From a virus (lineage: Duplodnaviria > Heunggongvirae > Uroviricota > Caudoviricetes), in IMG/VR virus record IMGVR_UViG_2529292905_000015: DNA of 28,103 bases; one strand, 5' to 3'. The translations under genes and the position numbers were made by a program. This document shows positions 1 to 25,463 of the stretch, piece by piece. The notes under the pieces are model-generated. The model was not told where the DNA came from. It did no database searches and saw only the letters and a program-made list of their open reading frames with translations. Positions within the stretch are counted from its first letter, which is position 1; every line of letters begins with the position of its first letter.

Positions 1-1032
1 TTATTTGATTTCAATTTTGTCCCACTCCCTGCCTCTGTCATCACGATACTGTGATGCCATGGTGTCCGACTTATGCCCGAGAAGATGTTGAGCAAACTTA
101 TCGCTTATCTGCTTCTCATAGAGTCTTGCAGACAAACTGCGCAACTCGTGAAAGGTAGGCGGATCCCCTTCGAAGGAAAGACCTGATGCTTTTCGTGCGC
201 GCATAAAATACCTTGATACTGTGCCGGATGAAAGCGGTTCACGACGAGTAGATGCAATTATGGTTTCTCCGCCAAGAATCTCTTTGCATTTATCAAGTGT
301 TTCCTTCATTGATATCCCGAGAGCATCAACATGCAATGTTGTAGGGATGGCAATTTTTACGCCTGTTTTGCTTTGTTCGACATAAAGATATCCATCTACG
401 ATATCAGACCACTTCATTTCGCATAAATCACCAACTCGCTGCCCGGTAACAACAGCCAGTTCCATTGCAAGTCTGAGCCAACATGGTGATGATTCTGCTG
501 CTTGATAAATTTTCAGGTATTCGTCAGCCGTAAGTCTTGATCTCCTTACCTCTGATTTTGCTGCGCGAGTGGCAGCGACCGGGTTTGTTGTTATATGGCC
601 TTCAGCTATTGCCTCTCGGAATGCATCGCTCAGTGTTGATCTGATTAACTTGGCTGACGCCGCCTTGCCCTCGTCTATGTATCCATTGAGCATTGCCGCA
701 ATTTCTTTTGTGGTGATGTCTTCAAGTGGAGCATCAGGCAGCCCCCTCCTTATTGCTTTAATTTTGCTCATGTAATTTATGAGTGTCTTCTGCTTGATTC
801 CTCTGCTGGCGAGGATTTTTTCGTAGCGATCAAGCCATGAATGTAACGTAACAGAATTATCACTGTTGATTCTCGCTGTCAGAGGCTTGTGTTTGTGTCC
901 TGAAAATAACTCAATATTGGCCTGTATTGCTTCAGTGATTGCTATCCTCCTGTCTCGGCCTAAACCAAACTCTTTACCCGTCCTTGGGTCCCTGTAGCAG
1001 TAATATCCATTGTTTCTTATATAAAGGTTAGG
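1..1032 (-). pseudogene. int: Lambda-type tyrosine integrase (Int), truncated at its 5' end by IS629; lacks about the first 12 codons. The ORF-track extension to 1125 runs into the IS and begins on a TTG.
   Basis: Translation is near-identical to remembered lambda Int from PNLYIRNNGYYCYRDPRTGKEF through the C-terminal REWDKIEIK; stop codon at 1-3 on the minus strand; the IS629 terminal repeat starts at 1033 immediately after the PNLY codons. Confidence 0.85.
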
Positions 1033-1086
1033 TGAACCGCCCCGGGAATCCTGGAGACTAAACTCCCTGAGAAAGAGGTAAACAGG

Positions 1087-1413
1087 ATGACTAAAAATAC
1101 ACGTTTTTCCCCCGAGGTCCGTCAACGGGCAGTTCGTATGGTTCTGGAAAGTCAGGGCGAATATGACTCACAATGGGCGGCAATTTGTTCCATTGCCCCA
1201 AAGATTGGCTGTACGCCAGAGACTCTGCGTGTGTGGGTTCGTCAGCATGAGCGGGATACCGGGAGTGGTGATGGTGGATTCACCACCGCTGAACGTCAGC
1301 GTCTGAAAGAGCTGGAACGTGAAAATCGTGAACTGCGCCGCAGTAACGATATCCTTCGCCAGGCTTCCGCTTATTTTGCGAAGGCGGAGTTCGACCGCCT
1401 CTGGAAAAAATAA
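1087..1413 (+). CDS. IS629 transposase OrfA (helix-turn-helix DNA-binding subunit)
   Basis: 108 aa, [30 protein letters not shown]..., matches remembered IS629/IS1203 OrfA; ends in an A-run followed by TAATG that overlaps the OrfB start. Confidence 0.9.
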
Positions 1414-2300
1414 TGCCACTGCTGGATAAGCTGCGTGAGCAGTACGGGGTCGGACCGGTATGCAGTGAACTGCATATTGCCCCGTCAACGTATTACCACT
1501 GTCAGCAACAGCGACATCATCCTGATAAACGCAGTGCCCGTGCGCAGCGCGATGACTGGCTGAAGAGAGAGATACAGCGCGTATACGATGAAAATCATCA
1601 GGTGTACGGTGTGCGTAAAGTCTGGCGCCAGTTGTTACGCGAAGGTATCAGGGTGGCCAGATGTACAGTGGCGCGCCTCATGGCGGTTATGGGACTTGCC
1701 GGTGTTCTCCGGGGTAAAAAGGTCCGTACTACCGTCAGCCGGAAAGCCGTTTCCGCAGGCGACCGCGTAAACCGTCAGTTCGTGGCAGAACGTCCTGACC
1801 AGCTGTGGGTGGCTGATTTTACTTACGTCAGCACATGGCAGGGCTTCGTCTATGTGGCGTTCATCATTGATGTGTTTGCCGGATGCATCGTGGGGTGGCG
1901 AGTCTCATCGTCTATGGAAACGACATTCGTGCTGGATGCACTGGAGCAGGCGTTGTGGGCCCGTCGGCCGTCCGGCACAGTCCATCACAGTGATAAAGGT
2001 TCTCAGTATGTATCACTGGCCTATACGGAGCGACTAAAAGAAGCAAAACTGCTGGCATCAACAGGGAGTACAGGTGACTCGTATGACAACGCGATGGCGG
2101 AGAGCATCAATGGTCTTTACAAAGCGGAGGTAATACACCGTAAGAGCTGGAAAAACCGTGCAGAAGTGGAACTGGCCACACTCACGTGGGTGGACTGGTA
2201 TAACAATCGACGATTGCTGGGAAGGCTGGGTCATATCCCTCCGGCAGAAGCAGAAAAAGCTTATTATGCTTCCATCAGAAACGATGATCTGGCAGCCTGA
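1413..2300 (+). CDS. IS629 transposase OrfB (DDE catalytic subunit), in the -1 frame relative to OrfA; normally made as an OrfAB fusion by frameshifting
   Basis: 295 aa with an integrase-core DDE-type sequence (…WVADFTYV…HSDKGSQY…YDNAMAES…); the frame relationship to OrfA is typical of IS3-family elements. Confidence 0.9.
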   Translation: MPLLDKLREQYGVGPVCSELHIAPSTYYHCQQQRHHPDKRSARAQRDDWLKREIQRVYDENHQVYGVRKVWRQLLREGIRVARCTVARLMAVMGLAGVLRGKKVRTTVSRKAVSAGDRVNRQFVAERPDQLWVADFTYVSTWQGFVYVAFIIDVFAGCIVGWRVSSSMETTFVLDALEQALWARRPSGTVHHSDKGSQYVSLAYTERLKEAKLLASTGSTGDSYDNAMAESINGLYKAEVIHRKSWKNRAEVELATLTWVDWYNNRRLLGRLGHIPPAEAEKAYYASIRNDDLAA

Positions 2301-2370
2301 GTTCACAGATAAAACACTCTCCAGGAAAACCGGGGCGGTTCAGCCTTTTTATTTGGGGGAGAGGGAAGTC

Positions 2371-2811
2371 ATGAAAAAACTAACCTTTGAAATTCGATCT
2401 CCAGCACATCAGCAAAACGCTATTCACGCAGTACAGCAAATCCTTCCAGACCCAACCAAACCAATCGTAGTAACCATTCAGGAACGCAACCGCAGCTTAG
2501 ACCAAAACAGGAAGCTATGGGCCTGCTTAGGTGACGTCTCTCGTCAGGTTGAATGGCATGGTCGCTGGCTGGATGCAGAAAGCTGGAAGTGTGTGTTTAC
2601 CGCAGCATTAAAGCAGCAGGATGTTGTTCCTAACCTTGCCGGGAATGGCTTTGTGGTAATAGGCCAGTCAACCAGCAGGATGCGTGTAAGCGAATTTGCG
2701 GAGCTATTAGAGCTTATACAGGCATTCGGTACAGAGCGTGGCGTTAAGTGGTCAGACGAAGCGCGACTGGCTCTCGAATGGAAAGCGCGATGGGGAGACA
2801 GGGCGGCATGA
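2371..2811 (+). CDS. ninB: NinB (Orf family recombination protein)
   Basis: [56 protein letters not shown]... is near-identical to lambda NinB; ATG at 2371 preceded by GGGAGAGGGAAG; stop overlaps the next start (ATGA). Confidence 0.9.
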
Positions 2812-2990
2812 GACGACAGCGACGAAGTTTCACCGACATCATCTGCGAAAACTGCAAATACCTTCCAACGAAACGCTCCAGAAATAAACGCAAGCCAATC
2901 CCAAAAGAATCTGACGTAAAAACCTTCAACTACACGGCTCACCTGTGGGATATCCGGTGGCTAAGACATTGTGCGAGGAAAACAAGGTGA
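2808..2990 (+). CDS. ninE: NinE-like small protein (60 aa)
   Basis: [51 protein letters not shown] matches remembered lambda NinE; start overlaps the ninB stop. Confidence 0.75.
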
Positions 2991-3157
2991 TTGACCAAAA
3001 TCGAAGTTACGAACAAGAAAGCGTCGAGCGAGCTTTAACGTGCGCTAACTGCGGTCAGAAGCTGCATGTGCTGGAAGTTCACGTGTGTGAGCACTGCTGC
3101 GCAGAGCTGATGAGCGATTCGAATAGCTCGATGCACGAGGAAGAAGATGATGGCTAA
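2945..3157 (+). CDS. ninF: NinF-like small Cys-rich protein; start uncertain (GTG at 2945 or GTG near 2987)
   Basis: C-terminal part [45 protein letters not shown] matches remembered lambda NinF; the first codon of the track ORF is GTG. Confidence 0.7.
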
Positions 3158-3770
3158 ACCAGCGCGAAGACGATGTAAAAACGATGAATGTCGGGAATGG
3201 TTTCACCCTGCATTCGCTAATCAGTGGTGGTGCTCTCCAGAGTGTGGAACCAAGATAGCACTCGAACGACGAAGCAAAGAACGCGAAAAAGCGGAAAAGG
3301 CAGAAAAGGCAGCAGAGAAGAAACGACGACGAGAGGAGCAGAAACAGAAAGATAAACTTAAGATTCAAAAACTCGCCTTAAAGCCCCGCAATTACTGGAT
3401 TAAACAAGCCCAACAAGCCGTAAACGCCTTCATCAGAGAAAGAGACCGCGACTTACCATGTATCTCGTGCGGAACGCTCACGTCTGCTCAGTGGGATGCC
3501 GGACATTACCGGACAACTGCTGCGGCACCTCAACTCCGATTTGATGAACGCAATATTCACAAGCAATGCGTGGTGTGCAACCAGCACAAAAGCGGAAATC
3601 TCGTTCCGTATCGCGTCGAACTGATTAGCCGCATCGGGCAGGAAGCAGTAGAGGAAATCGAATCAAACCATAACCGCTATCGCTGGACTGTCGAAGAGTG
3701 CAGGGCCATCAAGGCGGAGTATCAACAGAAACTTAAAAAACTGCGAAACAGCAGAAGTGAGGTTGCATGA
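3147..3770 (+). CDS. ninG: NinG (Rap-like recombination protein)
   Basis: [42 protein letters not shown]... near-identical to lambda NinG; start overlaps the ninF end. Confidence 0.9.
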
Positions 3771-4432
3771 ATATCTACGAAAGAATTGATGGCAGCAAAT
3801 ACCGAAATATTTGGGTAGTTGGCGATCTGCACGGATGCTACACGAACCTGATGAAAAAACTGGAGACGATAGGATTCGACACCAAAAAAGACCTGCTTAT
3901 CTCGGTGGGCGATTTGGTTGATCGCGGTACAGAGAACGTAGAATGCCTGGAATTAATCACATTCCCCTGGTTCAGAGCTGTACGTGGAAACCATGAGCAA
4001 ATGATGATTGATGGCTTATCAGAGCGTGGAAACGTCAATCACTGGCTGCTTAATGGCGGTGGCTGGTTCTTTAATCTCGATTACGACAAAGAAATTCTGG
4101 CTAAAGCTCTTGCCCATAAAGCAGATGAACTTCCGTTAATCATCGAACTGGTGAGTAAAGGAAAAAAATATGTCATCTGCCACGCCGATTATCCTTGTGA
4201 TAAATACGAGTTTGGAAAGCCAGTTGATCATCAGCAGGTAATCTGGAACCGCGAACGAATCAGCAACTCACAAGACGGGATCGTGAAAGAAATCAAAGGC
4301 GCGGACACGTTCATCTTTGGTCATACGCCAGCAGTGAAACCACTCAAATTTGCCAACCAGATGTATATCGATACTGGCGCAGTGTTCTGCGGAAACCTCA
4401 CATTGATTCAGGTACAGGGAGAAGGCGCATGA
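3767..4432 (+). CDS. ninI: NinI-type serine/threonine protein phosphatase (PPP family)
   Basis: GDLHGCY and GNHE metallophosphatase motifs; near-identical to remembered lambda NinI (221 aa); ATGA overlap with ninG; GAGG Shine-Dalgarno upstream. ninC, ninD and ninH are absent. Confidence 0.9.
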
Positions 4433-4560
4433 GACTCGAAAGCGTAGCTAAATTTCATTCGCCAAAAAGCCCGATGATGAGCGACTCACTACTGGCCACA
4501 GTTTATTGGTTTTCGTAACTGAGTCATTTTATTATTTTATTGCAACTTTTAATCTTTTAT

Positions 4561-4610
4561 AGTGCGAAATAAATGGAGCTGGCATTCATTTCGCACTTTA
4601 TGTTTTTGTT
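4561..4610 (+). terminator. Putative intrinsic terminator: perfect 10-bp inverted repeat (AGTGCGAAAT / ATTTCGCACT) with a 17-nt loop, followed by TTATGTTTTTGTT
   Basis: Read directly from the sequence; lies between ninI and the convergent minus-strand cargo gene. The T-rich tail is on the plus strand only. Confidence 0.45.
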
Positions 4611-4643
4611 GGACTTATGTTATTTTGATTGAATTCAATTCAG

Positions 4644-5603
4644 TTAAAAAAAGAAGGTGATTGCTCCATTTATAAATGAATAGTCATCCCCTGTCTTGAA
4701 TTCTGATGTTACTTTATTAAATGCTAGTGTGAAGGCTACAGGTGCATACCCAATTGTTGCGCCAACTTGATATTCATCAACAGTTTTGTTTAGCGATACT
4801 GTTGTTTGTTTCGTCTGTATTGTTTTTCCTTCGAGAGTATAGTTGCGATTGACATCTCGTCTTTCCATACCTGCAAAAATCTTGTATTTGAATCCGCTTG
4901 TATCGGACATATGCATTAAACCACGGGGAGCCAGCAGACCAAAGCCATTATCCGAATTGAAGGTTTTATCATTACCAATGGCAATGGTTGCGCCATATGC
5001 TACATATTGAAATAAGTTTCCAGTAACAGCAGAAACTTCAGGGTATAATCCAACATTAGCACCTAAAATATCCATACTTGGTGTCATGGATAGCATCCCT
5101 TTTACAGTATAACCGTAGCGATTCTCTATTTGATCATCCCATGCATGATATTTTTCTGCCCCAATAATCTCATGAGCTTTATTTTGTACTTTCTGACCGC
5201 CTGCGTCGGGGCCAACAACACCTATGTCAGTACCTAATCGATAGCGAATCCAGTCATTCGCAAGGGAGTTCCATTCAATACCAGTGTGAGTGTATGCACT
5301 AAAAGCTCTGTCTCCAGTTACAGCTGTGTTGTGTCTTTTATTACTGCCTGATGGAGAGTAAATATCTTGCGCAATATGGAGAGATAATTGGCTCGAGTCT
5401 GAGATATCGTGGCTATATCCCAGAAATAAGCCTTGTGAGTAATCATCTCTGTTTTCATGTTTATTGCCATAAATATCATTAAGTATTGGTTGAAACTTCC
5501 CTGCATCATCATTTGCTAATGATAATGCAAGGCTGTTCGCGATAGCTGAACACGTGGTAAATGACAGAGCAATAAAGACGCCAGCGATGACACTTTTTTT
5601 CAT
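4644..5603 (-). CDS. Outer-membrane beta-barrel protein, cargo gene; tentatively LpxR-like lipid A 3'-O-deacylase
   Basis: 319 aa; N-terminal signal peptide MKKSVIAGVFIALSFTTCSA; alternating amphipathic segments; C-terminal aromatic FFF typical of a beta-barrel signature; AT-rich with atypical codon usage; antisense to the flanking phage genes. Size and position recall the prophage-borne LpxR of EHEC, but this is from memory, not a sequence match. Confidence 0.7.
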   Translation of the reverse strand: MKKSVIAGVFIALSFTTCSAIANSLALSLANDDAGKFQPILNDIYGNKHENRDDYSQGLFLGYSHDISDSSQLSLHIAQDIYSPSGSNKRHNTAVTGDRAFSAYTHTGIEWNSLANDWIRYRLGTDIGVVGPDAGGQKVQNKAHEIIGAEKYHAWDDQIENRYGYTVKGMLSMTPSMDILGANVGLYPEVSAVTGNLFQYVAYGATIAIGNDKTFNSDNGFGLLAPRGLMHMSDTSGFKYKIFAGMERRDVNRNYTLEGKTIQTKQTTVSLNKTVDEYQVGATIGYAPVAFTLAFNKVTSEFKTGDDYSFINGAITFFF

Positions 5604-5993
5604 ATGTTATTGTCTTCCTTTTTTTGAATGGTGCGCGTATTTTACATACATGAGTTTGTAATACAAGGTGCGTAATCAATATGATGTTTTATAATTGCGT
5701 GAGACAATTGATTTATTCGTTTTTTATTGCGGTTTTTATTATCTTTTAATGTAACGGTGTTTTTATTAAGTGTGTTTGCGTGGTGTTTTATGTTTTTTAT
5801 AATTTTTATTTTATTAAATTTAAATGCATTAGTAATGGCTATTCTATATAGCAATATAAGAACTGTTACAAAAAAAGGGGGGGCAATTACAGGTAGTTAT
5901 GGATGATGAGTGAAACAGATATTGGAGAACCGGGGAATGAATGATGTCTGAGTCTTATATATCAGAACTCCTTCGCTGTCGCTGGGGGCTCCT
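5604..5993. promoter_or_regulatory. Strongly AT-rich divergent intergenic region with phased T-tracts (GTTTTTATT repeats); probable promoter region for the cargo gene and Q, and a plausible curved-DNA / H-NS target
   Basis: Repeated T5-6 tracts spaced roughly 10-12 bp apart between about 5690 and 5820; sits between divergent genes. H-NS binding is inferred from composition only. Confidence 0.4.
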
Positions 5994-6767
5994 GTGCTTA
6001 TGTCGTTTCCCCGATTCGGTTTTGAACGATTACCGAATGTTGAAGAATTATGCCAAAATATAGAAAGGATTTACTGCATGAATACCCAATATTTACAGTA
6101 TGTTCGTGAGCAACTTATGGCAGCTACTGCTGACTTGAACGGAGCAACGAAAGGCCAGCTCGAAGCCTGGCAGGAGCATGCACAATTTGATACTGGTACA
6201 TACAAACGAAAGAAGCCGCGCATTCTGGATGTGGTAACTGGCAAGATGATTACGCTGGATAATACGCCGACTTCCGGTAAGCAGTCGTACGCAAAAGGTT
6301 CATCCATTGCTTTGGTCAGCCCGGTTGAATTCTCAACCTCTTCATGGCGCCGCGCGGTTTTGTCTCTCGATGAACATCAGAAAGCATGGTTGCTTTGGTG
6401 TTACAGCGAAAGCGTTCGATGGGGGCATCAGGTCACCATAACGCAATGGGCATGGAGCGAGTTTAAAGATTTGTTAAGTAACAGAAAAATTGCAGGTAAG
6501 ACACTGGATCGCCTGAAGACGTTAATCTGGCTGGCTGCACAGGATGTGAAGAGCGAACTTGCAGGGCGTGAGGCCTATGAATACCAGACACTGGCATCAT
6601 TGGTGGGAGTGACAACAAAAAACTGGTCCGAGACATTTACTGAACGCTGGGTTGCAATGAAGCACATTTTTCTACAGCTTGATAGTGATGCTTTATTGCT
6701 TGTGACGAGAACACGTTCAAAACAAAAGGCAGCATTTTTACAGCAAAATATTGCAAAACTGGATTAA
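5994..6767 (+). CDS. Late-gene antiterminator Q, long form; probable true start at ATG 6078 (MNTQYLQYVREQL...)
   Basis: Sits between the nin region and the PR'-tR' unit and lysis genes; resembles the roughly 250-aa Q proteins of E. coli cryptic prophages (from memory); the track ORF begins on GTG at 5994; ATG 6078 has an AGGA motif about 8 nt upstream. Confidence 0.6.
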   Translation: MLMSFPRFGFERLPNVEELCQNIERIYCMNTQYLQYVREQLMAATADLNGATKGQLEAWQEHAQFDTGTYKRKKPRILDVVTGKMITLDNTPTSGKQSYAKGSSIALVSPVEFSTSSWRRAVLSLDEHQKAWLLWCYSESVRWGHQVTITQWAWSEFKDLLSNRKIAGKTLDRLKTLIWLAAQDVKSELAGREAYEYQTLASLVGVTTKNWSETFTERWVAMKHIFLQLDSDALLLVTRTRSKQKAAFLQQNIAKLD

Positions 6768-6779
6768 AAGCCATATACT
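6751..6779 (+). promoter_or_regulatory. PR'-like late promoter: -35 TTGCAA (6751-6756), 17-bp spacer, -10 TATACT (6774-6779); the Q-utilisation site is expected to overlap
   Basis: Sigma-70 consensus-like hexamers with ideal spacing, immediately after the Q stop and about 35 nt upstream of a strong terminator; a -10-like TATGTT lies in the initially transcribed region, as at lambdoid pause sites. Confidence 0.5.
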
Positions 6780-6814
6780 TCATGCAAATTTGGTATGTTG
6801 TAAAAAATGTATAA

Positions 6815-6839
6815 ACCCGCTGCCGAGTGGGTTTTTTTT
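6815..6839 (+). terminator. tR'-like intrinsic terminator: 7-bp stem ACCCGCU / AGUGGGU (one G-U pair), GCCG loop, then eight T
   Basis: Hairpin plus T8 read directly from the sequence, about 35 nt downstream of the PR'-like -10. Confidence 0.7.
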
Positions 6840-6936
6840 ATGCCCTGAGTTGTACTTGTACGGTAAACATGCTGGCTGCTATGTAATAGAGTTTTTTTAG
6901 CCTGTAACCTCTTGACGGCATTGAATTGCTTTTGTT

Positions 6937-7695
6937 ATGAGTTGTAAGCCAATGTTATCATCTTGTATTGGGGTGGTTATGAAGGATGGTGCGCTGCTCA
7001 GGAGTTCTTCACTTTTTATTGCCTACATGGGATGCCTTGGATGGGGGAGTGCTTATTTCTATGGATGGGGTACTTCTTTTTACTACGGCTTCCCATGGTG
7101 GATTGTAGGTGCAGGTGTTGATGATGTTGCCAGAAGTTTATTTTTTGCAGTTATCGTCATTGCTATATTTCTTATCGGTTGGGGTATTGGTGTTGTATTC
7201 TTTTTCGCAGTGAAAAGAAAACATTCTATGCAAGAGCTAAATGTATTTCGCCTTTATTTTGCTGTGGAATTATTGTTTGTGCCGGCAATTATTGAGTTTT
7301 CTATATTGAGACAGAAGATTCAGGTACCTCTTTTGCTACTGTCAGCAGCGATTGCGCTGGCGGTTACAATTTCGATAAGATCTTATGGGCGATTTTTATC
7401 GGTATCATGCTTCTATGATAAGCCATTTATAAAAAAACATTTTTTTGAGATTGTGATGATTGCTTTTGTGGCATATTTCTGGCTTTTTTCATTTCTGACA
7501 GGATATTACAAACCACAGTTTAAGAAAGAATATGAAATGATTAATTATAATGATGGTTGGTATTATGTTCTTGCTCGTTATGATAATTGTCTGGTTTTGT
7601 CTACTTCTTTCAATGCAGGTAGTAAAAGGTTTGTCATTTATCAATCAGCACAAGATAAGAATCTTCAGGTTGATATTGTAAGGACCAGAATTTAA
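6937..7695 (+). CDS. Polytopic inner-membrane protein of unknown function (moron between Q and the lysis cassette); start ambiguous (ATG 6937, 6952 or 6979)
   Basis: About 5 predicted hydrophobic helices, an aromatic/Gly-rich N-terminal segment (GWGSAYFYGWGTSFYYGFPWW) and a roughly 60-aa hydrophilic C-terminal tail; AT-rich; possible own promoter TTGACG (6912-6917) with TATGAG about 18 bp downstream. Confidence 0.65.
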   Translation: MSCKPMLSSCIGVVMKDGALLRSSSLFIAYMGCLGWGSAYFYGWGTSFYYGFPWWIVGAGVDDVARSLFFAVIVIAIFLIGWGIGVVFFFAVKRKHSMQELNVFRLYFAVELLFVPAIIEFSILRQKIQVPLLLLSAAIALAVTISIRSYGRFLSVSCFYDKPFIKKHFFEIVMIAFVAYFWLFSFLTGYYKPQFKKEYEMINYNDGWYYVLARYDNCLVLSTSFNAGSKRFVIYQSAQDKNLQVDIVRTRI

Positions 7696-8125
7696 TTGGC
7701 TGCATAAATAATATTTTAAGTTGCAAGTTGGCTATTCGTAGGAATAGAACCTTAGGCATGCTGAATGCGTTTCCTGAACATTGTTTTATAAACTGTGTCT
7801 GCTTGCTGTTGTGATCCTGCTTTTAGTGATGGTGATGATGGATTTCACCAGCAGGATAATGTTGGTACTGACTGATGGCGCTCTGGTCTGCGGCATTGTG
7901 GTATTGCTGTGGCCGATGATGAAAGAACAGAATGAATAATTCTTGACTTTTTTGTTTACTGTTTATTAAAAAATCAACCGCATGGTGAATCCTCCTTGGA
8001 GGGGCTAAATGATCGAGTTTTAAGGGCACGTAGCGAGTTCTGTTTGATCATTGCAGAACTTAGCGGGAGGCGCCATGCGTACATCACTAATGTTATTTCC
8101 TTCTATCATTTTCCTTGTGAGTTCT

Positions 8126-8152
8126 GGCTGCGCATGGCGCGGCCTTTTTTTT
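8126..8152 (+). terminator. Strong intrinsic terminator: GGCUGCGC-AUG-GCGCGGCC hairpin followed by eight T
   Basis: 8-bp GC-rich stem with one G-U pair and a T8 tract, read directly; lies downstream of the moron and upstream of the lysis cassette. Confidence 0.7.
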
Positions 8153-8328
8153 ATGACCTGCCACTGGCAGATGGTCATCCTGTGATTTGATTCCGGTTCC
8201 GGCTTTTTAACTCTGTTCCTGTACACGGGAGAAATTCTATGTCGATTAATCGTTATGATATTGGTTACAAGAAGTACCACGTATTGTGTTGAGATAGAAA
8301 GCATGGTGCCAGAGGTAAATGCAGCAGC

Positions 8329-8380
8329 ATAATAAAAAAGAGCCAGCGCAGAAGAGAACGGGTAAAAGAGTCTGCGCTGG
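8329..8380 (-). terminator. Minus-strand terminator-like element: perfect 10-bp inverted repeat (CCAGCGCAGA / TCTGCGCTGG) with an 18-nt loop, followed on the minus strand by CTCTTTTTTATT
   Basis: Read directly; the U-rich tail exists only on the minus strand; a consensus-like minus-strand promoter lies about 55-110 bp upstream of it (see findings). Confidence 0.5.
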
Positions 8381-8560
8381 CGTGGGGATATTCCCCGTGG
8401 AGAAATGATATGTAACACACATCGGGAACCTTTCTATATAAACATTATCATTATTGTCAATCATAACAGTCAGGTATTATGACGTTTATGCATCAGGGCC
8501 ATCAGGAATTAACTGGTGGCTTTTTATTGTTGTCAGCTTCCGGATAACGGGAGACGGGGT

Positions 8561-8776
8561 ATGTACCAGATGGAAAAAATAACAACAGGTGTGTCATACA
8601 CCACGTCAGCGGTGGGGACGGGATACTGGCTACTGCAGTTGCTGGACAAAGTCTCCCCATCCCAGTGGGTGGCAATAGGCGTATTGGGTAGCTTGGTGTT
8701 TGGCTTGCTGACGTATCTGACAAACCTTTATTTCAAGATTAAAGAAGATAAGCGTAAGGCTGCGAGAGGTGAATAA
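8561..8776 (+). CDS. S: Class II holin, phage 21 S-type pinholin, with a dual-start motif (MYQMEK)
   Basis: [66 protein letters not shown] closely resembles remembered S21; two transmembrane segments; stop overlaps the endolysin start. Confidence 0.85.
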
Positions 8777-9273
8777 TGTCGCCATCATTACGCAAGGCTG
8801 TTGCTGCTGCTATTGGTGGTGGGGCTGTTGCCATAGCGTCTGTGCTCATCACTGGTCCGAGTGGTGACGATGGCCTGGAAGGTGTCAGCTACATACCATA
8901 CGAAGATATCGTTGGCGTATGGACTGTATGTCACGGACACACCGGAAAAGACATCATGCCCGGTAAAACGTATACCGAAGCAGAATGCAAAGCCCTCCTG
9001 AATAAAGACCTTGCCACGGTCGCCAGACAAATTAACCCGTACATCAAAGTCGATATACCGGAAACAACGCGCGGCGCTCTTTACTCGTTCGTTTACAACG
9101 TGGGCGCTGGTAATTTCAGAACATCGACGCTTCTTCGCAAAATAAACCAGGGTGATATCAAAGGCGCATGTGATCAGCTACGGCGCTGGACATACGCTGG
9201 CGGTAAGCAATGGAAAGGGCTGATGACTCGCCGCGAGATTGAGCGTGAAGTCTGTTTGTGGGGGCAACAATGA
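8776..9273 (+). CDS. R: SAR (signal-anchor-release) endolysin, lysozyme-type, phage 21 R-like
   Basis: N-terminal Gly/Ala-rich weakly hydrophobic segment ([20 protein letters not shown]) followed by a lysozyme-like domain; immediately follows the pinholin. Confidence 0.85.
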
Positions 9274-9737
9274 GCAGAGTAACCGCGATTATCTCCGCTC
9301 TGGTTATCTGCATCATCGTCTGCCTGTCATGGGCGGTTAATCATTACCGTGATAACGCCATCGCCTATAAAGAACAGCGTGATAAAAAAGTCAGTGAGCT
9401 GAAGCAGGCGACCGCCACCATTACTGACATGCAGCAGCGCCAGCGTGCTGCTGATGCACTCGATGCTAAATACACGAAGGAGTTAGCTGATGCGAAAGCT
9501 AAAAATGATGCTCTTCGGCGCAAGCTTGATAATGGTGGTCGGGTGTTCGTCAAAGGAAAATGCCCTGTGCCATCCTCAGACGAAACCTCCAGCGCCTCCG
9601 GCATGGGCAATGATGCCACCGTCGAACTCTCTCCAGTTGCTGGACGAAACGTTCTCGGTATCCGGGACGGAATTATCCGCGACCAAACAGCACTGAGAAC
9701 GCTTCAGGAATACATCAGGACGCAATGCCTTCGATGA
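9270..9737 (+). CDS. Rz: Rz i-spanin (inner-membrane spanin subunit)
   Basis: N-terminal transmembrane segment ([20 protein letters not shown]) then a coiled-coil-like charged periplasmic domain; ATGA overlap with the endolysin stop; contains the embedded Rz1 frame. Confidence 0.8.
9490..9696 (+). CDS. Rz1: Rz1 o-spanin (outer-membrane lipoprotein), embedded in the +1 frame of Rz
   Basis: Lipobox ...IMVVGCSS and a proline-rich mature region ([13 protein letters not shown]); N-terminus MRKLKMML resembles lambda Rz1; lies entirely within Rz. Confidence 0.75.
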
Positions 9738-9910
9738 TAGCGATAATTTTACTCATCATCCTTCACATCTGGCTCTGTAGACAGGGTGGTGCTCACTTCT
9801 GGAGTGAATCATGGTTAAACATCTCATTGCTGATGCTTGATATTGAGCATCTGGCGCGCGGTAAGGGGCTGCGTTGAGATAAGAGCCAGTCATTAAAAAT
9901 ACCTGGATTT

Positions 9911-9936
9911 AGCCTCGCATTCGCGGGGCTTTTTTA
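9911..9936 (+). terminator. Intrinsic terminator-like hairpin AGCCUCGC-AUUC-GCGGGGCU followed by T5
   Basis: Read directly, about 170 bp downstream of Rz. Confidence 0.5.
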
Positions 9937-10354
9937 TTGCCATTACAAAAGCCACTCCCTACAGAGTGGCTTTGATAATGGCTTATACCCTACACGGGAT
10001 AACTTAACTGATATCCCTTTTAACGGATAAAGGTATTCAAGCCTGACACATCATGCGCTGTATCGTCGCTGTATTCCCGCATTAACCATGACCGTAGCCC
10101 GACGGGGAACTCCTTCTGCGCGAGTGTGCGGGAATAATCAAAAACGATGCACACCGGGTTTTTACCGCGCTAATGATTCGCGGGTTTGTCCCTCATGCTC
10201 GCCAGTCCTGTGCGGGGGTGGAAGAAACAGGACACTCACACAGATTCTTGTGGGTCGATGCTATTCCTTTCTGGATTATCCCGATGCCATTCATGCAAAG
10301 GCTGTATCAGACGTTCGTCATGGCTTTCAGGCTGACGGCTCCTCCCGGTGGGGT

Positions 10355-10551
10355 GGCCTGCCACGGGGCGGGAGCGTCGCGGAAAAAGGCTAGTTTTTGC
10401 ATTTTTATCGGCCACCATCATCTTTGCATCTTATTGATTATTAATGGTTATTTGTTTTTTGTATGTCGAATTGAGTGTTTTTTGTTCGACATCGAACGCG
10501 TTTTCTTAAAGTTGTTCGCACGATGCATGTTTAAAGCTCTCCGGAGGAAAT
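10355..10551. other. Probable cos region (cosN-like GGGGCGGGAGCGTCGCGG at 10365-10382, then an AT-rich cosB-like segment with short palindromes)
   Basis: GC-rich motif resembling the remembered lambda left end GGGCGGCGACCTCGCGGG; it lies about 187 bp upstream of the terminase small subunit start (lambda cosN to Nu1 is about 190 bp); downstream palindromes TGTCGAA...TTCGACA and TTCGACATCGAA. Confidence 0.45.
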
Positions 10552-11043
10552 ATGGATCATGAGTTGAAAAACCTGGTGCTGAATATTAATCAACTGGCGG
10601 CTTTATCTGGTCTGCACCGCCAGACTGTCGTGGCAAGACTGAAAAACATTCGTCCCGCTGGTGGACATGACAAACTCAAGCTATACCGGTTGACCGATAT
10701 TCTGACTGAATTTATGGGGTTACCACCGCCGGTTGCTGAGGGCGAAATGGATCCACATGAACGCAAAGCCTGGTATCAGTCTGAACGTGAGCGTCTTAAG
10801 TTCGAACAGGAAACGGCACAACTCATTCCGGCCAGTGATGTCAGACGGGAGTTTGCCATCTGGGCAAAAGCGGTCGTGCAGGTGCTGGAGACATTACCGG
10901 ATATTCTGGAACGTGACTGTGGTCTGCAGCCTGCCGCTGTGAGCCGTGTTCAGTCCATTATTGATGATCTGCGCGATCAGATAGCCCTGCGGGTGACCGA
11001 AGCAGGTGCGGATGATGAGGAGGAATTACAGCAGGAGGAGTAA
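10552..11043 (+). CDS. Terminase small subunit (Nu1-like function)
   Basis: 163 aa with a predicted N-terminal helix-turn-helix (LNINQLAALSGLHRQTVVARLKN) and an acidic C-terminus; GGAGGAAA Shine-Dalgarno; TAATG overlap with the large subunit; positioned directly after cos. Confidence 0.7.
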   Translation: MDHELKNLVLNINQLAALSGLHRQTVVARLKNIRPAGGHDKLKLYRLTDILTEFMGLPPPVAEGEMDPHERKAWYQSERERLKFEQETAQLIPASDVRREFAIWAKAVVQVLETLPDILERDCGLQPAAVSRVQSIIDDLRDQIALRVTEAGADDEEELQQEE

Positions 11044-13145
11044 TGCTGAATCAGGAAACCGCAAAGGCAGCACGAACCGATTCAGGTTATATCCTTCGCG
11101 CACCGAGACGAATGCGGGTTGCTGATGCCGTTGCTCAGTATATGCGGGTGCCCATGGGGGCCGGGAACTCAGTCCCGTGGGATCCGCTGGTGGCACCGTA
11201 TGTTATTGAGCCGATGAACTGCCTGGCCTCGCGTGAATACGACGCAGTGATATTTGTTGGCCCGGCACGAACCGGCAAGACTATCGGCCTGATTGACGGC
11301 TGGGTGATTTACAACGTGATTTGCGATCCTGCGGATATGCTGATCATTCAGATGACGGAGGAAAAAGCCCGCGAACACTCCAAAAAACGACTCGCCAGAA
11401 CGTTTCGCGTCAGCCCGGAAGTGGTCAGTCGCCTGAGTCCGAACAAAAATGACAACAACGTTTATGACAGAACATTCCTTGCTGGCAACTACCTGAAAAT
11501 CGGCTGGCCGTCAGTCAATATCATGTCCTCATCAGATTATAAATGCGTGGCGCTGACGGATTATGACCGTTTTCCGGAAGATATTGATGGCGAGGGGGAT
11601 GCCTTCTCTCTTGCCTCAAAACGTACCACCACATTTATGTCCAGTGGTATGACGCTGGTGGAGAGTTCCCCCGGCAGGGATGTGAAGGATGTGAAATGGC
11701 GACGGACTTCACCGCATGAGGCTCCACCAACCACGGGGATACTGTCGCTCTATAACCGTGGCGATCGCCGTCGCCGGTACTGGCCCTGTCCACACTGTGG
11801 TGAGTATTTTCAGCCCTGCGGCGATGTGGTTGCTGGTTTCCGTGATATTGCCGATCCCGTGCTGGCAAGTGAGGCGGCTTATATTCAGTGTCCTTCCTGT
11901 TCAGGACGGATTATGCCTGAACAAAAACGTGAGCTGAACGGACGTGGGGTCTGGTTGCGGGATGGTGAATCCATCAATGCGGATGGTAGTCGTTATGGTG
12001 ATCCCCGACGCTCACGTATTGCGTCATTCTGGATGGAGGGTCCGGCAGCTGCTTACCAGACACTCTCGCAACTCGTTTACAAACTGCTTACTGCAGAACA
12101 GGAATACGAGACAACCGGAAGTGAAGAAACACTCAAGACGGTTATCAATACCGACTGGGGATTACCTTATCTTCCCCGCGCCAGCATGGAGCAACGAAAA
12201 AGTGAACTGCTTGAGCAGCGGGCAGAGCCAGTTCCTTCCAGCAGTGTGCCGGATGGCGTTAATTTCCTTGTGGCGACAGTGGATGTGCAGGCGGGACGTC
12301 ATCGCCGTTTTGTGGTTCAGGTAACGGGCTATGGCAGCCGTGGCGAACGCTGGATTATTGATCGTTACAACATCACGCAGTCATTGCGCGGTGACAGCGA
12401 CGGTGAGAGCCAGCGAATTGATCCGGCCAGCTATCCGGAAGACTGGGATGTCCTGCTGACGGATGTTTTTCATAAAAGCTGGCCGCTGGCCTCCGATCCT
12501 TCTCAACAAATGCGACTGATGGCAATGGCGGTGGACTCCGGCGGTGAAGACGGGGTCACTGATAATGCCTATAAATTCTGGCGTCGTTGCCGTCGTGATG
12601 GCCTTGGTAAACGTATTTACCTGTTTAAGGGCGACAGCATCCGGCGCGCAAAACTGATCACCCGTACATTCCCTGATAACACCGGACGAACGGGCCGACG
12701 GGCGCAGGCCGCAGGTGATGTGCCGCTCTGGCTTCTTCAGACGGATGCACTGAAAGACCGGGTGAATAACGCGTTATGGCGTGACTCTCCAGGTCCCGGC
12801 TATGTGCATTTCCCTGACTGGCTGGGGAGCTGGTTTTACGACGAACTGACGTATGAAGAGCGGAGTAGTGACGGGAAATGGAGTAAGCCGGGTCGCGGTG
12901 CCAACGAAGCTTTTGACCTGATGGTGTATGCCGAGGCTCTGGTCATTCTGCATGGATACGAAAAGATCCGCTGGCCGGATGCACCGGGGTGGGCGAGCCG
13001 GGAAACCTGGCTGGAGAGTGTCCCGGACAGTACCGAACCGTCACCCTCACCGGAACCGGTATCCACGCCTGTTAAAAAACAAAAACGGAAGAAAACAGTA
13101 ACTGACGATGTTAACCCCTGGCTGACTTCCGGAGGATGGTTATGA
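11043..13145 (+). CDS. Terminase large subunit, lambda gpA family
   Basis: 700 aa; Walker A-like motif (VGPARTGKT); overall organisation resembling lambda gpA; follows the small subunit. Confidence 0.9.
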   Translation: MLNQETAKAARTDSGYILRAPRRMRVADAVAQYMRVPMGAGNSVPWDPLVAPYVIEPMNCLASREYDAVIFVGPARTGKTIGLIDGWVIYNVICDPADMLIIQMTEEKAREHSKKRLARTFRVSPEVVSRLSPNKNDNNVYDRTFLAGNYLKIGWPSVNIMSSSDYKCVALTDYDRFPEDIDGEGDAFSLASKRTTTFMSSGMTLVESSPGRDVKDVKWRRTSPHEAPPTTGILSLYNRGDRRRRYWPCPHCGEYFQPCGDVVAGFRDIADPVLASEAAYIQCPSCSGRIMPEQKRELNGRGVWLRDGESINADGSRYGDPRRSRIASFWMEGPAAAYQTLSQLVYKLLTAEQEYETTGSEETLKTVINTDWGLPYLPRASMEQRKSELLEQRAEPVPSSSVPDGVNFLVATVDVQAGRHRRFVVQVTGYGSRGERWIIDRYNITQSLRGDSDGESQRIDPASYPEDWDVLLTDVFHKSWPLASDPSQQMRLMAMAVDSGGEDGVTDNAYKFWRRCRRDGLGKRIYLFKGDSIRRAKLITRTFPDNTGRTGRRAQAAGDVPLWLLQTDALKDRVNNALWRDSPGPGYVHFPDWLGSWFYDELTYEERSSDGKWSKPGRGANEAFDLMVYAEALVILHGYEKIRWPDAPGWASRETWLESVPDSTEPSPSPEPVSTPVKKQKRKKTVTDDVNPWLTSGGWL

Positions 13146-13354
13146 ACCAGAATGATATCGAAGCCATGATTCAGCGTTATACGGAAGCTGAAATGGCGGT
13201 GCTGGACGGAAAATCCGTCACCTTTAATGGTCAGCAGATGACCATGGAAAACTTATCTGAGATCCGGCAGGGACGGCAGGAGTGGGAGCGCCGCCTTGCG
13301 GCTCTGATTACACGACGACGGGGGCATCCCGGGTACCGGCTGGCGAGGTTCTGA
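13142..13354 (+). CDS. Head-tail joining protein, gpW-like
   Basis: About 70 aa with a gpW-like pattern (…DGKSVTFNGQQMTMENLSEI…RRRGHPGY) comparable to the lambda W C-terminus RRRGPAGFYV; GGAGGA Shine-Dalgarno before ATG 13142. Confidence 0.7.
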   Translation: MNQNDIEAMIQRYTEAEMAVLDGKSVTFNGQQMTMENLSEIRQGRQEWERRLAALITRRRGHPGYRLARF

Positions 13355-14862
13355 TGGCAATTCTTGATGATGTGATTGGCGTTTTTTCACCAGGATGGAA
13401 AGCGGCAAGGCTGCGTTCCCGTGCGGTGATCCAGGCTTATGAGGCCGTAAAAACGACGCGGACACACAAAGCCCGGCGGGAAAACCGAACTGCCGGCCAG
13501 TTAAGCCAGTACGGGGCCGTGTCGTTACGTGAGCAGGCCCGTTACCTTGATAACAACCACGATCTGGTTATTGGTGTATTTGACAAGCTGGAAGAACGGG
13601 TGGTGGGGAAAAACGGGATTATTGTCGAGCCACATCCGGTATTACGCAATGGGGCCATTGCCCGTGATCTGGCAGCGGAGATACGCACCCGATGGAGTGA
13701 ATGGTCTGTCAGTCCGGAAGTCACCGGGCAGTTTACCCGTCCGATGCTGGAACGTCTGATGCTGCGTACCTGGCTGCGCGATGGTGAGGTGTTTGCCCAG
13801 ATGGTTTCCGGGCGCATAAACAGCCTGACGCCTTCTGCCGGTGTTCATTTCTGGCTGGAGGCGCTCGAGCCAGACTTTATTCCCATGACCAGTGATGAGA
13901 GCAACAGGCTGAATCAGGGCGTGTTTGTTGATGACTGGGGGCGTCCCGAAAAATATCTGGTGTATAAAAGCCGTCCCGTATCCGGACGGCAGATGGAAAC
14001 CAAAGAAGTGGATGCAGAGCGAATGCTGCATCTTAAATTTGTTCGCCGTCTGCACCAGATGCGCGGGACGTCTTTGTTGTCCGGTGTGCTGATCCGCCTC
14101 AGTGCCCTGAAAGAGTATGAGGATTCTGAGCTGACTGCAGCAAGGATCGCCGCTGCTCTGGGGATGTACATCCGGAAAGGCGATGGGCAGAGCTATGAAC
14201 CGGATGGTAATGGCAGCAAGGATAAGGAACGCGAGCTTACCATTCAGCCAGGCATTATTTACGACGATCTGAAACCCGGCGAAGAAATCGGAATGGTGAA
14301 GTCGGATCGCCCCAATCCTAACCTTGAAACTTTTCGTAATGGTCAGTTGCGTGCCGTGGCGGCGGGCAGTCGTCTGAGTTTTTCCAGTACAGCGCGCAAC
14401 TATAACGGCACTTACAGCGCCCAGCGTCAGGAGCTGGTTGAATCCACTGATGGCTACCTGATCCTGCAGGACTGGTTTATTGGTGCCGTCACCCGCCCGA
14501 TGTATCGTGCCTGGCTGAAACAGGCTGTGGCATCCGGTGTTATCAGGCTACCCCGCGATCTTGACCGTTCTTCACTGTATACCGCGGTGTATTCCGGACC
14601 GGTGATGCCGTGGATTGACCCTGTTAAGGAGGCTGAGGCCTGGAAAATTCAGATTCGTGGTGGAGCAGCGACAGAATCAGACTGGGTACGTGCAGGTGGT
14701 CGTAATCCGGATGATGTCAAACGTCGGCGCAAGGCCGAAATTGATGAAAACCGCAAGCTGGATCTGGTATTTGATACCGATCCGGCCAGTGATAAAGGAG
14801 GCAGCAGTGCCGCAACGAAACGACAGGAGCCGCAGCACACCGACGACCAGTCCGAAGAATAA
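13354..14862 (+). CDS. Portal protein (not the lambda gpB type)
   Basis: 502 aa; located between gpW and the prohead protease; ATG overlaps the W stop; size and acidic C-terminus are typical of portal proteins. The track ORF starts upstream at 13282. Confidence 0.75.
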   Translation: MAILDDVIGVFSPGWKAARLRSRAVIQAYEAVKTTRTHKARRENRTAGQLSQYGAVSLREQARYLDNNHDLVIGVFDKLEERVVGKNGIIVEPHPVLRNGAIARDLAAEIRTRWSEWSVSPEVTGQFTRPMLERLMLRTWLRDGEVFAQMVSGRINSLTPSAGVHFWLEALEPDFIPMTSDESNRLNQGVFVDDWGRPEKYLVYKSRPVSGRQMETKEVDAERMLHLKFVRRLHQMRGTSLLSGVLIRLSALKEYEDSELTAARIAAALGMYIRKGDGQSYEPDGNGSKDKERELTIQPGIIYDDLKPGEEIGMVKSDRPNPNLETFRNGQLRAVAAGSRLSFSSTARNYNGTYSAQRQELVESTDGYLILQDWFIGAVTRPMYRAWLKQAVASGVIRLPRDLDRSSLYTAVYSGPVMPWIDPVKEAEAWKIQIRGGAATESDWVRAGGRNPDDVKRRRKAEIDENRKLDLVFDTDPASDKGGSSAATKRQEPQHTDDQSEE

Positions 14863-14875
14863 TTCCTGGTTCAGG

Positions 14876-15808
14876 ATGCAGGCTGGTCACCAGAGTGACG
14901 CGGATATTTATATTTATGACGAGATTGGTTTCTGGGGTGTTACAGCGAAGCAGTTTATCAGTGATCTGAATGCACTGGGCGATATCACCCACATTAATCT
15001 CCATATCAATTCACCGGGTGGCGATGTCTTTGAAGGCATCGCCATTTTTAATGCACTGAAAACACATGGTGCGTCCATTACCGTTTATGTCGACGGTGTG
15101 GCGGCGTCAATGGCGTCGGTCATTGCGATGGTGGGAAAACCGGTCATTATGCCGGAAAACTCCTTCATGATGATTCATAAACCATTTGGCTTTACGGGCG
15201 GTGATGCGGAGGACATGCGCACCTATGCCGACCTGCTCGATAAAGTTGAGGCGGTTCTGTTACCCGCTTATGCACAGAAAACCGGGAAAGCCACCGATGA
15301 AATTGCTGCCATGCTGGCGGATGAGACCTGGATGTCCGGTGCCGAATGTCTGGCACATGGATTTGCTGATCAGGTGACGCCAGCCGTTAAGGCAATGGCA
15401 TGTATTCAGTCAAAACGTACAGAGGAATTTAAAAAGATGCCGGAATCCATTCGAAACATGATTACTCCGCCACGCAACAGTGCTCCACGCGTACAGGATG
15501 ATGGACCTGCAGCCTCCCGGACGCCAGTGCAGGCAGCAGCACCTGTGGTGGATGAAAACAGTATCCGTGCGCAGGTACTGGCAGAGCAAAAAGCGCGTGT
15601 AAACGGTATTAATGATCTGTTTGCCATGTTTGGCGGGCGTTATCAGACGCTGCAGGCTCAGTGTCTTGCCGATCCTGAATGTTCGCTGGAGCAGGCCCGC
15701 GAAAAGCTGTTGAACGAGATGGGGCGCGAGTCCACGCCATCTAATAAAAATACCCCGGCTCATATTTATGCCGGAAACGGTAATTTTGTGGGGGATGGGA
15801 TCCGCTAG
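14876..15808 (+). CDS. Prohead maturation protease, ClpP/S49-like (possibly with a C-terminal scaffold region)
   Basis: ClpP-fold-like core with GVAASMASVIAMVG and …MIHKP…; follows the portal. The track ORF begins earlier at 14615 but overlaps the portal; ATG 14876 lies just after the portal stop. Confidence 0.75.
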   Translation: MQAGHQSDADIYIYDEIGFWGVTAKQFISDLNALGDITHINLHINSPGGDVFEGIAIFNALKTHGASITVYVDGVAASMASVIAMVGKPVIMPENSFMMIHKPFGFTGGDAEDMRTYADLLDKVEAVLLPAYAQKTGKATDEIAAMLADETWMSGAECLAHGFADQVTPAVKAMACIQSKRTEEFKKMPESIRNMITPPRNSAPRVQDDGPAASRTPVQAAAPVVDENSIRAQVLAEQKARVNGINDLFAMFGGRYQTLQAQCLADPECSLEQAREKLLNEMGRESTPSNKNTPAHIYAGNGNFVGDGIR

Positions 15809-15814
15809 GCGCTG

Positions 15815-23404: not shown

Positions 23405-23413
23405 GAGGCTCTG

Positions 23414-25406: not shown

Positions 25407-25424
25407 TGAAAAACGTTTTATGTG

Positions 25425-25452: not shown

Positions 25453-25463
25453 CTGGAGCGTGA

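Follow-up and report, generated by a model that had tools for sequence, protein, structure and literature searches.

An intact IS629-group element at the joint of a 10,797-bp early-region deletion in the Sp3/CP-933K-type prophage of Escherichia coli O55:H7 DEC5E

Extent of the deletion

The DEC5E lineage of Escherichia coli O55:H7 has lost a contiguous 10,797 bp from an effector-carrying prophage, and an intact IS629-group element is found exactly at the joint, with its termini fused to both flanks and no target-site duplication (TSD), a result that we hold with very high confidence. The window, i.e. the whole stretch of 28,103 nucleotides that was analysed, lies between ybhC and ybhB on the DEC5E chromosome (NZ_CP038383.1). 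The host prophage is of the Sp3/CP-933K type and occupies the lambda attachment site, as indicated by its ybhC/ybhB location, its lambda-like late genes and its cargo genes lpxR, nleB2, nleC, nleH1 and nleD. The features around the joint are the following:

1 to 1032, minus strand: remnant of a lambda-type tyrosine integrase gene (int), codons 14 to 356 and the stop codon (Pfam Phage_integrase and Arm-DNA-bind_1)
1030 to 1032: left flanking triplet AGG, the last int bases before the IS, within an apparent cluster of IS629 insertions
1033 to 2342, plus strand: IS629/IS1203-group insertion sequence (IS3 family), intact, 1,310 bp (end sequences and identity to annotated copies)
2343 to 2354, plus strand: right flanking GCC and then TTTTTATTT, the residual 3' part of a tR2-like terminator, with the last stem bases and the U-tract
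2371 to 2811, plus strand: ninB, the first gene kept to the right of the deletion (Pfam NinB, E 1e-54; PGAP)

In the sister strains USDA5905 and CB9615, flanks 99.9-100% identical to those of DEC5E are separated by 10,797 bp without any IS, and DEC5B (O55:H7) and O157 493/89 also carry the same prophage IS-free and with its full early region. In these undeleted relatives the flanks keep the order and orientation seen in DEC5E but are parted by extra DNA, as in an IS-bounded deletion. On sister-strain coordinates the endpoints are L007 4204-15000, and the DNA missing from DEC5E comprises the int 5' end, xis, exo/bet/gam, kil, cIII, N, a HicAB module, cI, cro, cII, O, P and ren, the identities of N and cI being confirmed by Pfam in the undeleted relatives. 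The nin genes, Q, the lysis and morphogenesis genes and the T3SS effector genes nleB2, nleC, nleH1 and nleD are kept. The initial annotation had deduced that everything from xis through ren was absent and, with it, the repressor, N antitermination, replication and excision genes. The comparison bears this out, as all of these genes lie within the block present at the same site in the O55:H7 relatives, and no early genes, homologues of xis, cI, N, O and P included, were found elsewhere in the DEC5E prophage out to ybhB. As for the reference used for the endpoints, int is indeed of lambda type, but the proper reference is the Sp3/CP-933K-type effector prophage at attB-lambda and not lambda itself.

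An amber codon is present in the protease/capsid gene of the DEC5E prophage. Since it is common to two sister strains, the deletion struck an already impaired phage.

Junctions and absence of a target-site duplication

The int remnant (1-1032) matches int of phage 2B8 and O55:H7 CB9615 with 100% identity, and it lacks 39 bp, which are exactly the first 13 codons. The left end of the IS at 1033 had thus been correctly placed against int, but the accompanying count of about 12 codons has to be replaced by 13. The left joint in DEC5E reads TTAGG on the int side, directly followed by TGAACCGCC. On the other side, the right flank begins at 2343, immediately after the IS end at 2342, and the ATG of ninB at 2371 lies 28 bp downstream, in agreement with the first description.

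No TSD was found at the IS of the window, the flanking triplets being AGG and GCC, as had been noted before, with no 4-bp match either. A simple IS629 insertion is expected to leave a 3-4-bp duplication (PMC3271280), and 3-bp duplications are present at other IS629-group insertions in the same int gene (GGG in L005 and GGC in L006); in O157 genomes, matching TSDs were reported for only 21 of 47 IS629 copies (PMC3271280). The missing TSD is expected if the IS copy took part in a deletion or a recombination. Taken together with the sister strains, which are IS-free and have the full early region, these data agree with the earlier proposal of an IS-associated deletion or IS-IS recombination rather than a simple insertion. 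A simple insertion into int with an AGG TSD would read GGCGGTTCA followed by AGGGGGTAAATCC, and one into tR2 with a GCC TSD would read GTAATCGCAGGCC followed by TGAACCGCC.

The IS629-group element

The element at the joint has the organization of a complete IS3-family member:

about 1033 to 1057 and about 2318 to 2342: left and right terminal inverted repeats (IRL and IRR) of the IS629-group element
1087 to 1413, plus strand: IS orfA, 108 aa (ORF listing)
1368 to 1484, plus strand: ALIL pseudoknot, the RNA structure that stimulates frameshifting in the IS3 family (Rfam RF01497, 120.9 bits, E 6e-32)
1413 to 2300, plus strand: IS orfB, the DDE transposase part, 295 aa (ORF listing and NCBIfam transpos_IS3)

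Both inverted repeats start with TGAACCGCCCCGG, and 22 of 25 positions agree between IRL and IRR; the length of about 1.3 kb and the imperfect repeats opening with 5'-TG are those of the IS629/IS1203 group. The overlap of orfA and orfB, the programmed -1 frameshift and the DDE transposase (orfB scores 312 bits against NCBIfam transpos_IS3, cutoff 160) place the element in the IS3 family, and PGAP annotates its transposase as intact, with a programmed frameshift and no pseudogene mark. The DNA identity to copies annotated as IS1203/IS629 in L002, L005, L006 and L009 is 95.1-96.4%, in line with the level of at least about 95% for elements named IS629 or IS1203, and the divergence from IS1203-type copies is 4-5%. 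Plasmid copies are closer (99.3-99.9% identity). About 17-19 matches to IS629 ends were counted in DEC5E. The O55:H7 strain CB9615 has a single chromosomal IS629 copy, which is truncated, and prophages are the favoured location of IS629 (PMC3271280).

The chimeric int reading frame

Across the left joint, the int remnant is continued into the IS:

1 to 1125, minus strand: chimeric ORF of 374 aa with a TTG start and 31 IS-derived codons in frame with the int remnant (ORF listing)

The in-frame ORF is present as the initial annotation had it, but the functional chimeric Int that was thought conceivable is rejected. With its first 13 residues replaced, the lambda-type integrase matches Arm-DNA-bind_1 only from profile position 14 of 74 onward, leaving a shortened arm-binding domain. 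Reading of the sequence ahead of the TTG showed nothing like a Shine-Dalgarno sequence, no promoter-like site was found for the ORF in 900-2900, and the native promoters (pI/pL) are deleted together with xis and all upstream DNA. That a chimeric Int would matter is, on these sequence features, very unlikely.

The tR2-like terminator and transcription into the nin region

A terminator between ren and ninB normally makes transcription of the downstream nin-Q genes dependent on N. In an undeleted sister strain, a hairpin formed by AGGCCTGC, a loop and GCAGGCCT, followed by a T-run, is found at L007 14981-15004 between ren and ninB, and in phage 434 a terminator is annotated at the equivalent position. 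The right breakpoint of DEC5E, which had been assigned to the ren/ninB junction, does lie between these two genes, but more exactly within the 3' arm of this tR2-like terminator, of which only GCC and the T-run are kept. The hairpin energy is -15.7 kcal/mol (z -3.4) in the sister strain, versus -8.9 kcal/mol (z -0.2) for the hybrid formed in DEC5E, which folds no better than shuffled sequence. A tR2-type terminator, i.e. a GC-rich hairpin with a U-tract between ren and ninB, is thus present in the sister strain and absent from DEC5E. A consensus scan of positions 900-2900 on both strands revealed no sigma-70-like site, and thus no candidate for a promoter directed outward from the IS or formed across its ends. 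With pR and nutR lost and tR2 disrupted, the IS would be the sole plausible cis source of transcription into ninB-Q.

Distribution of the junctions in complete genomes

Among 5,426 complete genomes, both junctions together occur in DEC5E alone, and each exact junction, when queried singly, is again found only in DEC5E. Neither the left- nor the right-junction query recovered from these genomes an intermediate in which a single site carried the IS and the adjacent DNA was still complete, and no other IS629 insertion was found in them at the tR2 site. The near-matches recovered are independent insertions at +1, +3, -22, +23, +33, +89, +102, +147, +353, +511 and +560 bp. The IS629-group left end at +1 bp, in O103:H2 PV16-126, is likewise without a TSD and has a rightward gap, and the one at +3 bp, in AUSMDU00014361, has the TSD GGG. 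The statistical case for a clustering of IS629-group left ends in int is modest, with P about 0.02 in a post hoc test that covered one IS orientation. A target resembling the inverted repeats is not supported as the cause of this cluster: when windows across int-xis were aligned locally with IRL and IRR, the hot spot scored 7, whereas the mean was 5.1 and other places in the region reached up to 10.

With no intermediate among these genomes, the succession of steps and the route can only be inferred. The earlier statement that the early functions were lost in one event is not demonstrable, and at minimum an insertion and a deletion or recombination step are required.

Origin of the joint

The route that we propose, and to which we give about an even chance of being right or slightly better, is an insertion of IS629 into int followed by a transposase-mediated adjacent deletion to the right. 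The element would have inserted at codon 13/14 of int, where independent IS629-group insertions cluster, and an intramolecular event mediated by the transposase at its right end would then have linked IRR to a new target within the terminator tR2, with deletion of everything between int codon 13 and tR2. [quoted passage not shown] The 'sloppy attack' deletion model has been set out in bioRxiv 10.1101/2023.06.07.543989, according to which copy-out-paste-in chemistry alone gives no deletion and an extra resolution step is needed. Deletions linked to IS629 are known to contribute to diversity (PMC3271280).

Another explanation, possible but on the unlikely side, is that two IS629 copies in the same orientation, one at int codon 13/14 and one in tR2, underwent RecA-dependent homologous recombination, which removed the 10.8 kb and one IS copy. 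Exactly the structure seen would result, namely one intact IS with exact termini and unlike flanking triplets, in a strain rich in IS629 copies and in a prophage, the location preferred by 62% of the copies (PMC3271280). However, two independent insertions of the same orientation within 10.8 kb and then a recombination are needed, neither single insertion was found at the exact sites, and the tR2 site carries no other IS629 in the 5,426 genomes.

An improbable history is one in which the IS was first located at tR2 or within the early region, and the deletion proceeded leftward from it, or by two successive adjacent deletions, one per end. As one flank changes with each adjacent deletion, the sequence is formally compatible with this history, and the O145:H28 prophage has a comparable IS629-bounded deletion in which both endpoints are different (about L007 4717 to 14680). 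It is nevertheless less parsimonious, and the position of the left junction, where independent IS629-group insertions fall within 4 bp of one another, one of them simple and with a TSD, fits int as the primary target, although the cluster would fit equally well a secondary target chosen by the transposase.

It is very improbable that IS629 simply inserted into a prophage already deleted by an IS-independent event. Losses without an IS do exist, since in O157 Sakai and NZRM4165 bet' runs straight into the 3' end of ninB, but such an insertion should have left the 3-4-bp duplication (PMC3271280) in place of AGG and GCC, the IS-spanning junction queries found DEC5E only, and every sister strain checked has the region in place. 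An assembly artefact, in which the repeated IS falsely linked two contigs, can practically be dismissed: IS629 is multicopy in DEC5E and a few homopolymer indels distinguish the window from the RefSeq record, a minor sequence-level uncertainty, but both records agree at the two junctions, the assembly was made from PacBio RS II long reads and polished with Illumina reads, so that a 1.3-kb repeat is easily bridged, and an artefact would require that a closed chromosome lack or misplace the 10.8-kb early region.

Consequences for the prophage

From its gene content, the DEC5E prophage would no longer be able to repress, antiterminate, replicate or excise, and it probably persists as an effector-carrying remnant that cannot leave the chromosome. 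The joint provides a base-pair record of how, in one O55:H7 lineage, an apparently complete-looking effector prophage (lpxR, nleB2, nleC, nleH1, nleD) turned into a fixed remnant, and the same functional block is gone three separate times in related pathogens, with different breakpoints. Since it is unique to DEC5E among the complete genomes, the junction could be used for strain typing, and it offers an example for studies of prophage domestication and IS629 activity. A broader reading, which we regard as rather doubtful, is that int codons 12-14 may be a recurrent target of IS629 and the element a repeated 'prophage-locking' agent; the three losses might then reflect selection to immobilise and silence the prophage rather than neutral decay, and in DEC5E the loss of tR2 might place ninB-Q under read-through from the IS629 transposase gene.

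Comparison with known systems

The right breakpoint of DEC5E resembles the nin5-type deletions of lambda in that both abolish the terminator function between ren and ninB. In contrast, nin5 removes the nin region with its terminators and keeps pR, N, O and P, whereas DEC5E keeps nin and loses the promoter, N and everything upstream.

The DEC5E prophage is the same as Sp3 of O157:H7 Sakai and CP-933K of EDL933: it occupies the same ybhC/ybhB site, carries the same effector genes and is 99.6% identical to Sakai Sp3 over 25 kb. In Sp3, CI/Cro and O/P are missing, int is disrupted, and no circularisation, replication or packaging takes place (PMC2669165), so the functional outcome is that of the DEC5E prophage. 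Its loss measures 7,432 bp (L007 8007-15438) and joins bet' to the last 31 bp of ninB in an IS-free joint, and a 4-bp indel has damaged its int, whereas that of DEC5E is cut by the IS629 joint. Each strain keeps DNA that is missing from the other, and the two deletions are therefore independent.

A related prophage at ybhC in O145:H28 (e.g. strain 95-3192, RM13514 lineage) has its early region replaced by an IS629-group element without a TSD, in the order int-xis-hyp, IS, ren'-ninB. Both endpoints differ from those of DEC5E (about L007 4717 and 14680), the IS is 95% identical, and int, xis and tR2 are kept. The region missing from DEC5E was lost in O157:H7 (Sakai Sp3) and O145:H28 through separate, independent deletions. 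By term search, the DEC5E genome paper (PMC9413875) contains neither of the terms ybhC and Sp3 and does not discuss the IS629 copy of the window; the O145:H28 genome paper likewise lacks both terms.

The closest parallel is given by the IS629-associated deletions and TSD-less copies in the prophages of EHEC O157, which involve the same IS group and lambdoid-prophage location as DEC5E and share its signature of an intact IS, exact termini, non-matching flanks and missing adjacent DNA (PMC3271280; also Ooka et al. 2009 and Kusumoto et al. 2011, as cited in PMC3271280 and bioRxiv 10.1101/2023.06.07.543989). Unlike these cases, DEC5E belongs to the O55:H7 lineage, in which CB9615 is almost IS629-free, its IS is 4-5% diverged from the IS1203 type, and its breakpoints are at int codon 13 and in tR2. 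The DEC5E joint is a fresh instance of the well-documented IS629-associated prophage deletion, and represents ordinary decay in this pathogen group rather than a new mechanism or element.

Prophage identity and integration site

Positions 1-3000 of the window match a single complete genome, E. coli O55:H7 DEC5E (NZ_CP038383.1), at 100% and in one piece. Over 23 kb the two sequences differ only by three 1-bp homopolymer indels (window 5626, T7 versus T8, and two more positions before 23000), and window 19783-28103 shows one gap and one mismatch. These homopolymer-length differences suggest that the window is another version or assembly of strain DEC5E. In the annotated neighbourhood, int directly adjoins ybhC and the other prophage end adjoins ybhB-bioA, the position of the lambda attachment site. 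The prophage is the counterpart of Sp3 (CP-933K) of O157:H7 Sakai, with which it shares the site, 99.6% identity over 25 kb and the cargo genes lpxR, nleB2, nleC, nleH1 and nleD.

An IS629-group element replaces the early region

The features around the junction are the following:
1-1032, minus strand, lambda-type int remnant, 100% identical to int of phage 2B8 and O55:H7 CB9615
1033-2342, intact 1,310-bp IS3-family element of the IS629/IS1203 group
1087-1413, plus strand, IS orfA (ORF listing)
1413-2300, plus strand, IS orfB (ORF listing; NCBIfam IS3 transposase model, 312 bits)
1368-1484, ALIL frameshift pseudoknot (IS3-family)
2371, ninB ATG, 28 bp beyond the IS right end

Both IS termini start TGAACCGCCCCGG... 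and match at 22 of 25 positions. The initial annotation correctly placed the right end relative to ninB and the left end against int, but its estimate of about 12 int codons is to be refined, exactly the first 13 being missing from the remnant. As it also stated, the flanking triplets differ (AGG on the left, GCC on the right) and there is no target-site duplication (TSD). This absence is informative because, in other genomes, two members of this IS group that inserted simply into that int gene are flanked by clean 3-bp TSDs, GGG in AUSMDU00014361 and GGC in NZRM4165.

In the O55:H7 strains USDA5905 and CB9615 this prophage occupies the same site and contains no IS. Their flanks match the window at 99.9-100% identity and enclose exactly 10,797 bp (4204-15000 of L007, the USDA5905 prophage locus). 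The complete layout of the early region is likewise found in O55:H7 DEC5B and in 493/89, a sorbitol-fermenting O157 strain. The lost block comprises:
int 5' end, xis and several small ORFs
exo, bet, gam, kil, cIII
ral and N (Pfam N_peptide, E 5e-32)
a HicA/HicB-like pair
cI (Pfam HTH and Peptidase_S24), cro, cII
O, P, ren

None of these early genes is present in the remainder of the DEC5E prophage, so the refuting condition named in the initial annotation, early-gene homologues at another place in the prophage, does not hold. A false join through the 1.3-kb repeat is very unlikely in this genome, a PacBio long-read assembly with Illumina polishing. The IS629-linked deletion is thus confirmed, and its earlier interpretation as an IS-associated deletion or IS-IS recombination, and not a simple insertion, is supported with refinements. 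In the sister strains, the HicA toxin/DUF1902 (HicB-like) pair lies in the immunity region between N and cI (L007 10846-11438); this toxin-antitoxin module has gone from DEC5E together with the repressor.

The right breakpoint lies within a terminator

A 24-bp stretch of the sister strains, with its end 25 bp upstream of ninB, makes up a hairpin AGGCCTGC/GCAGGCCT, followed by TTTTTATTT (-15.7 kcal/mol, z -3.4). Its site between ren and ninB is, by established lambda biology, that of tR2, and phage 434 has an annotated terminator at the equivalent position. DEC5E retains only GCC and the T-run; joined to the IS end, these give a fold no more stable than that of shuffled sequence (-8.9 kcal/mol, z -0.2). 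Since pR, nutR and N are all lost, any transcription in cis into ninB-Q would have to start in or beyond the IS. The transposase genes are oriented towards ninB, and the window scan found no promoter-like site in the IS/flank region.

At the other junction, a chimeric Int had been thought conceivable, int being in frame with IS-derived codons. The reading frame is genuine (1..1125, minus strand, 374 aa, TTG start), but a functional product is very unlikely: no Shine-Dalgarno-like motif was read upstream of the TTG, no promoter-like site was found for the ORF, the native int promoters were within the deleted DNA, and the Arm-DNA-binding domain match starts only at profile position 14. Moreover, xis is absent from the prophage, and lambda-type Int requires Xis for excision.

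Route of origin

IS629-group left ends are apparently clustered at int codons 12-14, with three independent ones within 4 bp:
DEC5E, window 1030-1036 region, offset 0
O103:H2 PV16-126, L009 (its prophage locus) 9101/9102, offset +1 bp, IS 96.4% identical
AUSMDU00014361, L005 (its prophage locus) 9035/9036, offset +3 bp, IS 95.7% identical, GGG TSD, simple insertion

The PV16-126 element is in a different prophage, at torS, has no TSD and misses the DNA to its right. More insertions occur at -22, +23 and +33 bp, with 12-13 distinct positions over about 600-700 bp; in simulation, three would fall within 4 bp with a probability of ~0.02, a post hoc value for one orientation only. Target similarity to the IS inverted repeats was not supported as a cause of the cluster.

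Exact IS termini on both sides of the DEC5E element point to transposase chemistry or to homologous exchange between two IS copies. A primary IS629 insertion in int may have been followed by a rightward adjacent deletion from the inserted IS. We lean to this route given the cluster in int and since no other IS629 insertion was found at the tR2 site in 5,426 complete E. coli genomes; our confidence nevertheless stays evenly poised, because the cluster statistic is post hoc and concerns one orientation only. For copy-out-paste-in elements, deletions are possible via 'sloppy' strand transfer, an extra resolution step being needed (bioRxiv 10.1101/2023.06.07.543989). Homologous recombination between two IS copies, with which the exact termini also agree, is possible though doubtful. 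Querying both junctions in the same genomes returned no intermediate for either route. Other orders of events are improbable, and illegitimate end-joining is disfavoured by the exact termini.

Each exact junction is present only in DEC5E among these genomes, and the IS629 background fits a recent, strain-specific deletion. DEC5E has about 17-19 IS629-end matches. CB9615 has a single, truncated chromosomal IS629 copy, IS629 subtypes are 55-60 nt apart, and only 21 of 47 IS629 copies of O157 genomes keep a TSD (PMC3271280). The DEC5E copy has 56-63 nt differences to IS1203-type copies.

Other defects and layout

An amber codon (TAG, window 15806-15808, codon 334) interrupts the ClpP-like prohead protease/major capsid fusion gene (about 14807-16834, plus strand). 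USDA5905 and CB9615 have it too, Sakai has CAG at this position, and the DEC5B and 493/89 annotations show the gene as intact. As this codon was already in the prophage, the phage that the deletion struck was no longer fully viable. In DEC5E the portal gene (window about 13354-14862) is annotated as intact, and it is a pseudogene remnant after an extra 1,125-bp ORF in Sakai Sp3 (21529-23110 of L004, the Sakai locus), so the two lineages differ in late-gene defects.

From ninI (pphA) to the late region (window 4429-6767), a 72-bp antiterminator remnant, the lpxR moron (lipid A 3'-O-deacylase, 4644-5603, minus strand), ylcG and a complete Q follow in order. This layout, the same in all relatives examined, has the appearance of a Q module replaced long ago.

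Comparison with related lineages

Table. Early-region deletions, in L007 coordinates
O55:H7 DEC5E: 4204-15000; 10,797 bp; IS629-group at joint; int truncated at codon 13, tR2 cut
O157:H7 Sakai and NZRM4165: 8007-15438; 7,432 bp; no IS; bet' joined to last 31 bp of ninB (Sakai joint, L004 11028/11029)
O145:H28: about 4717-14680; about 10 kb; IS629-group, no TSD (L002, its prophage locus, 7544-8853); int, xis, tR2 kept

Each lineage retains DNA that another has lost, so the immunity/replication core of this attB-lambda effector prophage has been removed three times independently. Only the apparent int codon 12-14 cluster, the tR2-internal breakpoint and this three-fold loss in one effector prophage are mildly new; a term search of the DEC5E genome paper (PMC9413875) found no mention of 'ybhC' or 'Sp3' and no discussion of this IS629 copy. 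Sakai Sp3, with no CI/Cro or O/P and a disrupted int, cannot circularise, replicate or be packaged (PMC2669165). The DEC5E prophage has arrived by a different path at this functional state, as a strain-specific case of the well-documented IS629-associated deletion in lambdoid prophages of EHEC/EPEC.
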